64,000 nt of DNA, taken from NCBI GenBank assembly GCA_020725175.1, contig DYFM01000001.1, positions 1,504 through 65,503 on the forward strand. Reading direction: 5' to 3'. The notes under the pieces were generated by a model that was not told the DNA's origin, searched no databases, and saw only the letters and a program-made list of their open reading frames with translations. This stretch comes from Candidatus Paceibacter sp. (GTDB lineage Bacteria; Patescibacteriota; Patescibacteriia; Magasanikbacterales; UBA922). The position numbers and the translations under genes are program-made. This document shows positions 4,201-60,492 of this stretch, piece after piece; position 1 is the stretch's first letter, and each line of letters opens with the position of its first letter.

Positions 4201-4292
4201 GTTTATTGGTTTAATAGTTCATTGGTCGATTGGGTAGCCAAACCTTCATCCAGTGCATCACGAAAGACCAATTTGATATTAAACCAATAAAC
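4201..4292. repeat. Inverted array of 8-nt TTTATTGG-like units between rplR and rpsE
   Basis: gtttattggtttaata (4201-4216) is the exact reverse complement of tattaaaccaataaac (4277-4292); pairing extends inward (attggtc/gaccaat). Confidence 0.8.
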
Positions 4293-4313
4293 TAGTAAAC
4301 TAATAACTTCTTT

Positions 4314-24869: not shown

Positions 24870-24974
24870 AAATCAAAAGTCGAACATAAAAAATCCTAAA
24901 TCACGGAACCTGAGTCATCTGAAAAAATGAAAAGGATTTATGATTTAGGATTTTTGATTTTAGATTTTGATTTA
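24870..24974. repeat. Inverted heptamer array (AAATCCT/AGGATTT-type) between convergent genes
   Basis: aaatcaaaa...aaaaatcctaaatca pairs with tgatttaggattttt...ttttgattt. Confidence 0.8.
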
Positions 24975-26108: not shown

Positions 26109-26219
26109 GCTCTGAGTTAGCTGAGCTAGCTAAGTTTTCTGAGTGCTCTAAGTTTTCTAAGAGTAGACTCAGTCAACTCAGAACACTCAGAAAACTCAGA
26201 ACACTTAGTTAACTCAGCA
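26109..26219. repeat. Inverted nonamer array (CTGAGTTTT/AAAACTCAG-type) in the parA leader
   Basis: About five ctgagttag/ctaagtttt units face about five aactcagaa/aaaactcag units; ends 2 nt before the parA ATG. Confidence 0.85.
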
Positions 26220-32809: not shown

Positions 32810-34117
32810 TTAGCGACGTAACTCTCCACTCAAAAAAATCGATCCGGTAACTAAAATAATATCTTGTTTCTTGGCTTGAGACTTACTCCAATGAAGCGCT
32901 TCCTGTGGTTCTAGAAATACGTTCGTAGTTGTTTTTGGAAGAATTTTTTTCACAATGCGTTCCATGATAATCGGTGACATAACTTTTCGAAACGCATTAC
33001 TGGTATTTCTGGTACACGCCACACTCACCGGTTGAAGACTGGTGAGTTTTTTTATCATGGATGTTGTATCTTTGTTTTCAGAAAATCCGAGTACAAGATG
33101 AATTCGTTGATTTTTCTTTTTCATAGACAAAATAGTTTCAACCGAAGATTTGATTTTATCAGCATTGTGTGCGCCATCGAGAATGATAGTGGGGGAATGT
33201 TGAACCACTTCCATGCGTAATGGTTGGGTTGCGCGTTGTAATCCGGTTTGAATTGCTTTGGTTGAGCAACCAAGATATTCCGCTACATCAATCGCCAGCG
33301 CAGCGTTGGTGGTTTGGTGGATACCGGGCGCTTGGATTGCGTATGTTTTATTATTGTACTTAAACCGTTGACCAGTGATCGTGCGAGAAATAACCGTTGG
33401 AGGGGTGGTAGGAGTAAAAAGAATTGAACGACCGGAGACTTTTCTCCATTCTTTGGTAAAAATTGATTGCAATCGTTTATTTTTTTCTCCTATAAATACC
33501 GCACTATCTTTCATAATGATCCCGGCTTTTTCGTAAGCGATTTTTTCTTTGGTATCTCCAAGTATTTCTGTATGATCAAGCCCGATATTGGTAATGATGG
33601 CGACATCTTTCCATGGTAAAATGTTGGTAGAATCGTATCTTCCCCCACATCCTACTTCTACTACCGCCCATTCAACTTTTTTTTGTGCAAAATAATACAG
33701 AGCAATGGCCGTGGTTATTTCAAAAAAAGAAACCATGTCGTATGGGCTGGTTCGAACGTACTGATCAAGAACCGGCTTAAACGTTTCAACGATCTGAATA
33801 AATTCTCGTTCACTCATGTTTTTGTCATTGGTTCTCCAACGTTCCGTTAACTTGGTAGGGTGTGGTGAGGTAGTCAATCCAACTTTTTTCCCATCCGCAA
33901 CGAGAATGTTGTGCAGGTAGGTAGAAACTGATCCTTTTCCACTGGTACCGGTGACATGAATATAATGAGGAATTTGTTTTTCCGGGTTTCCTAGAAGATC
34001 AAGGAGGAATTGCATGCGCTTCAAGTAGACGCCGCACGCATGTGGATCATTCATGTATTCCTGGCGGGGGAGATTTGAGAGGGAGAGGAGGAATTGTTCG
34101 GCCTGTTGATAATTCAT
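32810..34117 (-). CDS. folC: Folylpolyglutamate synthase-like Mur ligase family protein
   Basis: IHVTGTSGKGS, TSPH, FEITTA, EVGCGGRYDSTN, LDH...LG, EKAGI, LDGAHN, TGSIFL. Confidence 0.88.
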   Translation of the reverse strand: MNYQQAEQFLLSLSNLPRQEYMNDPHACGVYLKRMQFLLDLLGNPEKQIPHYIHVTGTSGKGSVSTYLHNILVADGKKVGLTTSPHPTKLTERWRTNDKNMSEREFIQIVETFKPVLDQYVRTSPYDMVSFFEITTAIALYYFAQKKVEWAVVEVGCGGRYDSTNILPWKDVAIITNIGLDHTEILGDTKEKIAYEKAGIIMKDSAVFIGEKNKRLQSIFTKEWRKVSGRSILFTPTTPPTVISRTITGQRFKYNNKTYAIQAPGIHQTTNAALAIDVAEYLGCSTKAIQTGLQRATQPLRMEVVQHSPTIILDGAHNADKIKSSVETILSMKKKNQRIHLVLGFSENKDTTSMIKKLTSLQPVSVACTRNTSNAFRKVMSPIIMERIVKKILPKTTTNVFLEPQEALHWSKSQAKKQDIILVTGSIFLSGELRR

Positions 34118-34129
34118 ATAGGTGTTTTA

Positions 34130-34166
34130 GTTGTCAGGTTTGCAAGTTTGCAGGTTAACAAGTTGG
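34130..34166. repeat. Octamer array downstream of the four-helix-bundle gene (inverted partner of 34574-34616)
   Basis: gttgtcag gtttgcaa gtttgcag gttaacaa gttgg. Confidence 0.85.
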
Positions 34167-34180
34167 TGTATTGAAACGTT

Positions 34181-34540
34181 TTACTTTTGAACATTAATCC
34201 AGCCACGTAACGTTCTGCCGGTTTCATTACAGTGTTTAGACAATTCTTGATATGTTTCTAACGGTAAGTATTTCAGATCATAGCTTAATAGAAGGAAATA
34301 TTTTACTTCTTCTAGTGAGCTCATGGCTACTTCATAAAAACGAAGGCTTTCTTTTGTAGTGTTTCGGTAAAATCCTTCAACGATATTGGCTGCTACTGAT
34401 ATCATTGCTCGGCGCATTTGGGATGTTACACCATACAATTCTTCCTTTGGAAAATTTCTCGTAACTTTGTATATTTCAAGAACTGTCTTATGTGCCATTT
34501 GCCAGGCTTTAATATCCTGAAAACGCGTTATTGTCGGCAT
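34181..34540 (-). CDS. Four-helix-bundle protein (23S rRNA intervening-sequence protein family)
   Basis: FQDIKAWQ, FPKEELYGVTSQMRRAMISVAANIVEG, AMSSLEE, LSYDLKY; ATG at 34540. Confidence 0.93.
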   Translation of the reverse strand: MPTITRFQDIKAWQMAHKTVLEIYKVTRNFPKEELYGVTSQMRRAMISVAANIVEGFYRNTTKESLRFYEVAMSSLEEVKYFLLLSYDLKYLPLETYQELSKHCNETGRTLRGWINVQK

Positions 34541-34573
34541 ACTATGAAAAATTACTAGAAACATGTTAAGTTA

Positions 34574-34616
34574 CAAACTTGCCAACCTGCCAACCTGTCA
34601 ACTTGCAAACTCCAAC
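34574..34616. repeat. Octamer array upstream of the four-helix-bundle gene
   Basis: caaacttg ccaacctg ccaacctg tcaacttg caaactcc aac; reverse complement matches the 34130-34166 units. Confidence 0.85.
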
Positions 34617-35702
34617 TCACCTACTCAACACATACATCATCCCACCTAAGTTTCTCACTTTTCCTTTCATCTCCATGAGTGTCATGGTGCCGTTGACGAC
34701 ATGACTGGCGAGGCCGGAGCGTTTGATAATGTTATCGATGTGGATAGGTTCACGAGAAAGGTGAGGAAGAATGGTGGCTTCAGTAGGAGAATCAGGGAGA
34801 ATTTCTTTCGATTCGACGAATTGTTGAATATTTTGTAAATTTAGTGCATCGAGGATGTCTTTGGCGGAGGTAACCGGTTTGGCTCCCATTTTGAGAAGAT
34901 TATTTGGTCCGATAGCGGTTGGAGACGTGATGTTTTGTGGTACCGCGAACACGTCTCGGTTGCTGTCGAGGCTGCATTGAGCGGTAATAAGAGCACCGGA
35001 ACTCTCACCGGCTTCGATGACAAGTGTCCCAAGTGACAGTCCGGCAATGATACGATTGCGGCGAGGAAAACTGAATTGGGTAGGAAGTGTTCCGGGGTGA
35101 TATTCTGAGAGTACTGCTCCACCGGCATCAATAATCCGTTCTGCCAAATGTTTGTGTGCGGCCGGATACAGATATTGATGATCTACTCCTCCCCCGAGAA
35201 CAGCAATCGTCACTCCGTTGGCGCGAATGGTGGCTTCATGAGCAATACCATCAATCCCCAGTGCGAGACCGCTAATAATAGCTACTCCTTGTCGAGCGAG
35301 TTCACCAATCAGCTCTTCAGTGACTTGTTTTCCGTACGAAGTAAACTTTCTTGTCCCTACTACGCCGAGTGGAAAATCGAGTCGAGTGAGTGAGCCACGG
35401 ATAAACAGGCAAAAGGGCGGATCATAAATTTGTTTCAATAGTTCTGGGTATTCCGGGTCATCAAGTGTGACACAGTTAATGCCGGTATCGTTTAATCGTT
35501 TAATGATGAGTTCTTCATTGAGATTATCTTTCCAAATCAAAAATTCATGGATCAGATTGTCATCCCAGTGTAGTTTGGTTTTTATTTCATCAAAGTATGA
35601 GTTCCAAAACGCATTAACATCTGAAAAAGCGCTGCGGATATCTTGCCAGCGCTTGTTGGTGAGTTTGGGGAAGTGAGCGAGAAGAATTTCTTTTTTAAGC
35701 AT
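34617..35702 (-). CDS. dprA: DNA-processing protein DprA
   Basis: YPELLKQIYDPP, VVGTR, SGLALGIDG, FPRRNRIIAGLS, SGALITA, C-terminal winged helix. Confidence 0.96.
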   Translation of the reverse strand: MLKKEILLAHFPKLTNKRWQDIRSAFSDVNAFWNSYFDEIKTKLHWDDNLIHEFLIWKDNLNEELIIKRLNDTGINCVTLDDPEYPELLKQIYDPPFCLFIRGSLTRLDFPLGVVGTRKFTSYGKQVTEELIGELARQGVAIISGLALGIDGIAHEATIRANGVTIAVLGGGVDHQYLYPAAHKHLAERIIDAGGAVLSEYHPGTLPTQFSFPRRNRIIAGLSLGTLVIEAGESSGALITAQCSLDSNRDVFAVPQNITSPTAIGPNNLLKMGAKPVTSAKDILDALNLQNIQQFVESKEILPDSPTEATILPHLSREPIHIDNIIKRSGLASHVVNGTMTLMEMKGKVRNLGGMMYVLSR

Positions 35703-35715
35703 AGTTTTTGGCAGT

Positions 35716-40816: not shown

Positions 40817-41163
40817 GTCGTTTCCGCCCGAGGCGGACCCGCCTTGGGCGGGCAATGGATAGGACATGGGTTTGCGGAACCCAAGATCTAAGTTCGATTC
40901 TTAGCAGGTGCACAGTGTATAGGTGTTGGTTTGTCGGGTCATCCGACCCGATCGGGTTGAATAACCCGACGGAACCCAAGATCTAAGTTCTCCTCCCGAG
41001 GCGGATCCGTCCTGGGCGGAGATTCTTAGCAGGTGCACAGTGTATAGGTGTTGGTTTGTCGGGTCATCCGACCCGATCGGGTTGAATAACCCGACGGAAC
41101 CCAAGATCTAAGTTCTCCTCCCGAGGCGGATCCGTCCTGGGCGGAGATTCTTAGCGAGAGCAC
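40817..41163 (+). repeat. Three tandem 5'-truncated tRNA-Arg copies carrying 30- and 36-nt palindromic insertions
   Basis: GGAACCCAAGATCTAAGTTC recurs at 40876, 40971 and 41096; 40906-41030 and 41031-41155 are an exact 125-nt tandem duplication; inserts at 40823-40852, 40934-40969, 40991-41020, 41059-41094 and 41116-41145. Confidence 0.92.
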
Positions 41164-60320: not shown

Positions 60321-60492
60321 TTACGGATTACGGATAATACGGAGGTACGGATAATTGTTTTGCAGAGTAAGCTAGTAAGCAGAATAGGCAGAGTAAGAGT
60401 ACAAAACACCATAGCTTATTCTGCTTACTCTGCGTACTTGCATATTCTGCCCGGTTCAACATCTGTATCTCCGTATTATCCGTAATCCGTAA
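60321..60492. mobile_element. About 170-nt nested inverted-repeat (MITE-like) element, copy 2
   Basis: Perfect 24-bp terminal inverted repeat ttacggattacggataatacggag / ctccgtattatccgtaatccgtaa; inner arms gcagagtaagctagtaagcagaataggcagagtaag / cttattctgcttactctgcgtacttgcatattctgc. Confidence 0.85.

Follow-up and report, generated by a model that had tools for sequence, protein, structure and literature searches.

A four-helix-bundle gene between dprA and folC of a Candidatus Paceibacter genome is bracketed by inverted octamer arrays whose repeat word follows the protein clade

In a 64,000-nucleotide stretch of a Candidatus Paceibacter genome (the window; contig C25:1504-65503 of the 1.24-Mb genome G000), a gene of the 23S rRNA intervening-sequence (IVP) family of four-helix-bundle proteins lies between dprA and folC, inside two inverted arrays of an octamer. 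Arms of this kind proved to be common around homologues, their repeat word follows the protein clade, and gene-less arrays of the word co-occur with the clade. With moderate confidence, we propose that gene and arms are a DNA-level element and that the protein likely reads the repeat word of its own arms and helps to seed or maintain gene-less hairpins, resembling RAYT proteins and their REPINs. The link between unit and clade and the co-occurrence of clade and dispersed repeats are new here, while the IVP family, the build of ORF-bearing intervening sequences and gene-less paired arrays were already known. The family was described from rRNA intervening sequences, and to our knowledge no function has been assigned to it since; tandem arrays of short repeats in bacterial intergenic regions are reported in print as unexplained.

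The locus is made up of the following features (window coordinates):

34617 to 35705 (or to 35732), minus strand: dprA, whose stop codon is the insertion site of the cassette
34560 to 34616, minus strand: 5' arm, a run of some five degenerate octamers (A[AG]GTT[GT][GA]C), beginning directly after the dprA stop codon
34181 to 34540, minus strand: four-helix-bundle gene (23S_rRNA_IVP / TIGR02436), 119 aa, assigned by PF05635, TIGR02436, PDB 2GSC and dN/dS
34118 to 34166, minus strand: 3' arm, some four to five octamers in the opposite orientation that peter out just ahead of the folC start codon
32810 to 34117, minus strand: folC, the downstream host gene

The first in-frame ATG upstream of the IVP gene is at 34564 (ORF 34181-34564) and would give 127 aa; in orthologues the start is the ATG at 34540 (MPTITRF), giving 119 aa. 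In profile searches, the protein matched PF05635 with 121.3 bits (cut-off 33.8) and TIGR02436 with 112.3 bits (cut-off 24), and its sequence matched PDB 2GSC with an E value of 1.7e-13. The ORF is under purifying selection, with a dN/dS of 0.09 to 0.36 where synonymous sites were unsaturated. The arm unit is a AAGTTGGC-type octamer, inverted on the two sides of the gene, and TRF reported period-8 arrays at 34576-34611 (4.5 copies) and 34138-34164 (3.4 copies; as period 16, 34129-34166). As the first-pass annotation of this DNA had claimed, the flanks are able to pair: complementarity between 34130-34164 and 34560-34594 reaches 83% across 35 nt, shifts of 8 nt give alternative registers, and the sense strand of 34110-34640 folded at -140.4 kcal/mol (z -5.03), which none of 100 shuffles equalled. 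The cassette is single-copy, and G000 has one gene of its protein clade. No target-site duplication, flanking direct repeat or IS ends were found at the cassette. A promoter scan placed a weak site at 34569-34541, in a scan that returned 9 sites where 5.8 +/- 2.6 were expected, and an Rfam search of the window gave only two tRNAs. Just after a tRNA gene, at 40896-41155, a 125-bp unit stands in two perfect tandem copies.

To see how general the arms are, we compiled a homologue sample from the best 80 of 159 contig loci, 110 of the 226 matches from 81 genomes of the same family and the 8 other G000 genes (n = 198, of which 195 had enough flank). Inverted arms with a score of at least 14 were present at 174 of the 195, compared to 19/584 swapped and 34/195 reversed flanks. 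Setting aside 11 near-identical cyanobacterial copies left 184 non-redundant homologues, and arms flanked 163 of these (152 periodic), compared to 41 of 1062 other G000 genes (15 periodic). The first-pass annotation had named, as evidence against a cassette, homologues flanked by inverted arms no more often than random genes; by these counts, they are flanked more often. G000 carries nine PF05635 and six PF13366 (GxxExxY) genes, most of them with inverted arms, the units of which differ; one of the nine IVP genes, on contig C6, had no arms. Two hits in viral contigs showed no arrays by eye. The first arm was richer in stop codons than its own reverse complement in 87 versus 38 cassettes, and in 54 versus 23 gene-less hairpins, comparisons that are suggestive only, with composition uncontrolled.

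The repeat word varied with the protein. Arms of the clade to which our protein belongs (eight members, support 94 in FastTree) are AAGT-nnnn octamers, and other IVP clades use units such as AGATAGC (e.g., locus L171) or AAAGGCTTG (e.g., L174). By flank homology, the 116 family loci with usable flanks fell into 69 site clusters, a clustering based on roughly 290 nt of flank, which may divide genuine sites. Arms were then compared at 98 loci with periodic arms, counting a 5-mer overlap of at least 0.3 as similar. Among proteins at least 60% identical, arms were similar in 63/112 pairs at different sites and in 19/35 pairs at the same site; similar arms were seen in 0/19 same-site pairs with less than 50% protein identity and in 18/3855 different-site pairs with less than 40%. 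Arm unit and protein distance were correlated (Mantel r 0.51, 0/999 permutations), and the co-variation of unit and clade raised in the first-pass annotation is thereby supported: arm sequence tracks protein clade, not site. The octamer of our cassette also flanks a homologue (54% identical) that follows folA in a Gracilibacteria MAG (L035). There, a thyA-folA operon contains a pair of four-helix-bundle-like genes, with folA between them (labels by eye).

Arrays were also abundant away from IVP genes. A scan of G000 gave 515 arrays with a score of at least 9, compared to 76 in a shuffled control; 188 of the 515 had an inverted partner, and 119 inverted array pairs scored at least 14. For the octamer of our cassette, another 20 arrays contained at least two pattern matches; among them are five gene-less inverted pairs, on contigs C22, C23, C26 and C28 (two), which have the same polarity as the cassette. 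At C11:27421-28932, octamer arms in the right polarity stand 1.45 kb apart around two genes, possibly a composite element or genes inserted in the loop. A gene-less octamer hairpin at C25:92409-92544 lies downstream of a leader-like sequence and directly ahead of a start codon; the gene starting there is presumably rplJ-like.

A triple-octamer pattern derived from G000 was searched in 80 relatives and was present in 10 of them. With clade calls made among the IVP matches listed, these were 6/7 genomes with the clade of our cassette, 4/44 other IVP-positive genomes and 0/29 IVP-negative genomes (clade versus other IVP-positive, Fisher p 7.5e-5); when only non-arm sites were counted, the first figure became 5/7 (p 1e-3), the matches in G041 being confined to its own arms. 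Both p-values are overstated because the genomes are kin. In G086, the clade is present and the pattern absent. A TAAGTGWR variant, taken from the arms of G087, G054 and G055, had 11 further sites in G087 and none in G000; in G054 and G055 it occurred only within their own arms, and it matched three times in G057 and once in G004, neither of which has a clade gene among the matches listed. A second pattern, CARATAR, was found in 7/80 relatives, comprising 4/4 with the cognate clade versus 3/47 without it among the matches listed. G000 has 40 CARATAR matches, yet no cognate-clade gene among its nine IVPs. This speaks against a rigid one-to-one correspondence of word and gene; possible causes are loss, an assembly gap and cross-recognition. 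None of the four unit patterns was found in the 29/80 relatives without an IVP hit. Gene-less arrays of a cognate unit thus do co-occur with the cognate clade, as a kinship between cassette and gene-less arrays had led the first-pass annotation to expect.

The particular relatives named there did not hold up. Gene-less inverted arrays of the window include the following:

4203 to 4306: 8-mer array, ATTGGTTT type
24876 to 24968: 7-mer array, AAATCAT type
26112 to 26217: 9-mer array, CTGAGTT type, resembling by eye the IVP arms on contig C4 and not those of this cassette
60371 to 60441: 9-mer array, AAGCAGAGT type

These had been taken for empty relatives of the cassette, but their units differ from its octamer, and the five matching pairs lie on other contigs. 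Other members of the CTGAGTT unit family failed a k-mer match to arms. Among 91 short-loop gene-less hairpins, 38 matched the arm of a G000 IVP or GxxExxY gene and 10 did so in reversed polarity; in a wider set, 60 matched some IVP or GxxExxY arm in the same polarity and 12 in the opposite one. An HMM built from the 184 IVPs found only nine full genes at 9 bits or more and no IVP remnant in the hairpin loops, which were mutually unrelated except for array overflow and one palindrome. The gene-less hairpins are therefore not simple copies, and we rejected internal deletion of the cassette as their source: whatever kinship "empty" implied, they are not visible deletion derivatives. A terminator role was likewise rejected, the hairpins showing no enrichment between convergent genes (5/86, compared to 72/601 background gaps).

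The dprA junction was compared across relatives. An IVP gene directly follows the dprA stop in 6/69 (G000, G054, G055, G060, G087 and, via an overlapping contig, G041), and in G082 one stands a gene further on, with an internal stop. Other dprA junctions are empty, hold other genes or hold gene-less arrays of other units (by eye in G007, G057, G062, G077 and G082), and a metagenome contig (L312) has a GxxExxY-like ORF there (by eye), so that the empty, array-only and gene-filled states foreseen in the first-pass annotation all occur. The dprA stop is a hotspot for other hairpin families too, with unit families swapping there even within one genus. We rejected a fresh insertion at dprA: the clade of our cassette is found at that stop in six genera, with synonymous sites near-saturated. 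Purely vertical descent at the site was examined on a quick DprA tree and rejected: the occupancy label needed 5 changes, at least 4 of them forced, and 100/500 shuffles were as low. Sister genomes differ in occupancy (G060/G089 and G087/G057); in the second pair, the flanks are 91 to 92% identical, with the IVP in G087 only. In G057 (locus L224), a TAAGT-octamer-like remnant at the dprA stop is followed by a hairpin of another unit, which suggests loss and replacement. Between G041 and G055, identity was 83% for DprA, 80% for the downstream gene and 61% for the IVP, and between G054 and G055 it was 65%, 73% and 88%, respectively. In the latter pair, four-fold sites differed at 17/39 positions in the IVP versus 58/89 and 45/70 in the flanking genes, and an AU test rejected G041+G055 as an IVP clade (p 0.0004). 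No close strains that could fix the boundaries of the insertion were found among the metagenome contigs in 43 loci, the best DprA match being 63%. Patchy occupancy, lateral replacement and old residence together indicate that the dprA site is old, favoured and turned over. Stable conservation at the dprA-folC junction, named in the first-pass annotation as evidence against mobility, was thus seen in part: residence is long, but occupancy is patchy and the gene has been replaced laterally.

Two further elements were seen at dprA. A motif, TATGTTGTA (loci L222-L289), lies between dprA and downstream membrane-protein genes in G082, G083, G053, G079, G001 and G089 and is a possible regulatory site. 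At the dprA 3' end of G024 (L019/L256), a MITE-like element of about 150 bp with long terminal inverted repeats overlaps the dprA stop.

Long residence at dprA and purifying selection on the ORF are also what would be expected of a host regulatory or chromosome-organising system, in which selection retains arrays that arose in place as binding sites, while the IVP autoregulates through its own flanking sites. The unrelated loops and the many single arms are consistent with such a system, and comparable arrays in Geobacter (PMC2700814) and Beggiatoaceae (PMC4679880) are read as regulator sites in the passages available of these papers. We nevertheless consider it rather unlikely, given that the 116 loci are spread over 69 site clusters, that unit families replace each other at a single junction even within a genus, that the gene at dprA has been laterally replaced, and that 29/80 relatives do without both an IVP hit and all four patterns.

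We examined whether a partner could account for the arrays. A reverse transcriptase, suggested by the kinship of the family to the accessory protein Avd, was rejected, since RVT_1 searches gave no hit in 5/10 octamer-pattern genomes nor in 9/20 genomes with at least five IVP hits. The corresponding reading, in which the IVP is an Avd-like accessory of a reverse transcriptase writing the repeats by retro or telomerase-like synthesis, is scarcely credible to us. It could draw on a weak match to bAvd (PF22296, 43.9 bits; cut-off 40) and on the inverted geometry, which is what adding repeats to the two 3' ends of a linear fragment would yield, but the protein scores below the cut-off of the Avd equivalog (53.4 versus 80 bits), and the sole RT of G000, at C9:5071-7138 with a 124-nt repeat pair at 87%, belongs to what we take, from sequence features, to be a DGR-like locus, in which the RT is accompanied by a separate Avd-like ORF.

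GxxExxY genes have the same arm architecture and were present in 36/80 relatives, all of them IVP-positive. As an obligatory enzyme, GxxExxY was rejected, because 15/51 IVP-positive genomes, G054 among them, had no hit. At C30:8868-9350 of G000, a GxxExxY cassette is fused in frame, through its 5' arm, to an upstream 650-aa gene (which we take to be DHH/RecJ-like), giving a 773-aa frame; GxxExxY hits in frames of 736 to 873 aa also occurred in G055, G066, G085 and G007. As for insertion sequences, two cyanobacterial MAGs (L075-L089) hold an IVP with heptamer arms in a 555-bp unit with IS-like 14-bp ends; the unit is present in 12 copies, 99.3 to 99.8% alike, 8/12 with target duplications of 9 to 10 bp. 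This IS-ended unit is one real route of movement, and it is not the build of the dprA cassette. The four Y1_Tnp genes of G000 all lie away from the cassette. At C21:2724-3492, AAGATAC-type heptamer arms surround a Y1 transposase (IS200-like) bounded by end palindromes of its own; this looks like an IS that landed in a hairpin loop.

Such observations could be read as making the IVP a hitchhiker on arrays that are made or moved by another agent, be it an IS transposase, the nuclease-like GxxExxY protein or slippage with recombination. The cyanobacterial unit, the shared architecture of GxxExxY genes and the CARATAR arrays in G000 without a cognate IVP all point that way. Against this stand the lack of IS ends or a duplication at the dprA cassette, the dispersed cognate arrays of G054, which has no GxxExxY hit, and the purifying selection on the ORF; arms inherited with the gene would also leave dispersed arrays that match the resident variant, as with TAAGTGWR in G087, unexplained. 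We regard a passenger role as unlikely.

The first-pass annotation had located the pairing of the arms in the mRNA. In this model, the operon transcript would fold arm to arm, and RNase III would cut the ORF out as in 23S rRNA intervening sequences. The 35-nt stem (z -5.0) and the RNase III gene encoded in G000 fit this, as does the 23S intervening sequence of Coxiella, described in the accessible part of PMC4990558 as having heptamer repeats (GACAGAT) in its 5' arm and being cut by RNase III. However, the antisense strand of the cassette folded nearly as well (z -4.39), and gene-less hairpins were not depleted between divergent genes (16/86, compared to 104/601 background gaps). Using a strand-neutral aligner, we also compared the number of mismatches able to form G-U wobbles in the transcript with that of A-C mismatches. 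G-U was not in excess on the sense strand of the 163 cassettes (344 versus 399), among isolated mismatches (98 versus 101) or in co-directional gene-less hairpins (114 versus 113), which argues against a selected mRNA stem, although the controls were weak: because they were mixed (tRNA acceptor stems 7:0, terminator-like stems 12:9, and three tRNA windows 20:21, the last probably due to loop-closing C-A pairs), the test is suggestive only. Selection for an mRNA stem was accordingly not borne out, and excision from the transcript seems to us quite improbable; RNase III may well cleave the stem as a side effect.

We therefore return to the DNA-level element. That the word matches the clade and is scattered in the genomes that carry it suggests that the protein likely recognises and helps to spread its own repeats, though it is no transposase. 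The gene, together with the inverted octamer arrays on either side of it, would be a single DNA element that travels from site to site and from lineage to lineage. Recognition of the word by the protein is likely by analogy to Avd, and its help in seeding or maintaining gene-less hairpins of that word would be given in trans, as by a RAYT on REPINs. The substrate would be hairpin or cruciform DNA. We know of no catalytic activity in the IVP family, and cutting and joining would probably be done by another enzyme, of the host or a partner. Insertion after a stop codon may be tolerated because host genes stay intact. Several observations weigh against this reading: G000 is rich in CARATAR arrays and lacks a cognate gene, G086 has the clade but not the pattern, only 38 of the 91 gene-less hairpins match an arm of a G000 gene, their loops are free of IVP remnants, many arrays are unpaired, and the IVP on C6 is armless. 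Of the autonomous array-ORF-array cassette that had been proposed, the site-changing unit stands (116 loci in 69 clusters), while autonomy found no support, as the protein has no known catalytic function and the cassette no target duplication.

A broader generalisation is speculative, and we put it forward with more doubt than conviction: IVP pentamers, and in parallel GxxExxY proteins, might be the sequence-specific keys of a transposase-free selfish DNA that plants clade-specific words of 6 to 9 bases after stop codons with the help of host enzymes, and the heptamer and octamer arrays of many phyla, together with ORF-bearing rRNA intervening sequences, might be products of this one system. 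If the protein drives the arrays, this would be a way for DNA to become mobile with no transposase that can be recognised, and the proteins would form a new, modular group of nucleic-acid binders with sequence specificity. Since protein and repeat word match clade by clade, cognate and non-cognate pairs are at hand for binding and mobility assays.

Our literature search, largely of openly accessible main texts, found nothing linking the IVP family to flanking tandem arrays outside rRNA. Paired octamer and heptamer arrays of Geobacter metallireducens appear in the available passages of PMC2700814 as "predicted global regulator binding sites" of classes 1-3, and TAACTGA repeats of Beggiatoaceae, to which PMC4853749 points in its accessible part, are interpreted in PMC4679880 as translational regulator sites, an interpretation as regulatory sites that sets both apart from ours. 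The terms "four helix", "IVP" and "intervening" have 0 occurrences in the accessible text of PMC4679880.

MITEs and IS-ended elements resemble the family in that the cyanobacterial homologue rides in such a unit, but the dprA cassette is single-copy and has neither IS ends nor a target duplication. With the DGR accessory protein Avd, the likeness lies in the protein: according to the accessible passages, Avd is homologous to the IVP four-helix-bundle family (PMC10053308), and its pentamer contacts a nucleic-acid stem-loop (10.1101/2023.10.23.563531). Unlike a DGR, the cassette lacks a neighbouring RT as well as a template and a variable repeat, and its protein stays below the equivalog cut-off.

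rRNA intervening sequences (S23p / 23S_rRNA_IVP) share with the cassette the protein family, an ORF in the loop of a terminal stem and short tandem repeats in an arm. They also occur in ORF-containing and ORF-less forms scattered at shared sites, as the insertions with and without an ORF in CPR rRNA illustrate in the part available of PMC11270868. Complementary ends that form a long stem around an ORF are found in our cassette as well, but it lies between the protein genes dprA and folC and not inside an rRNA gene, shows no sign of RNA-level selection, and has many paralogous unit families beside it in each genome. The accessible passages of PMC4990558 and PMC11270868 do not link unit to clade or mention dispersed arrays.

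The REPIN-RAYT system differs in its parts. The cassette protein is not an HUH (Y1) transposase, matching only PF05635 and PF22296; its units are non-palindromic tandem words of 6 to 9 nt, whereas REPs are palindromic; and the loops of cassette-type hairpins are unrelated, with the gene-bearing cassette itself found at many sites. The layout is nonetheless alike. As described in the available passages of PMC3116915, a single-copy gene is flanked by its cognate repeat, inverted doublets of the repeat are dispersed between genes, several families share a genome, and lateral exchange occurs over the long term. In G000, one gene of the clade is likewise accompanied by 20 further arrays of its octamer, including five gene-less inverted pairs in the same polarity.
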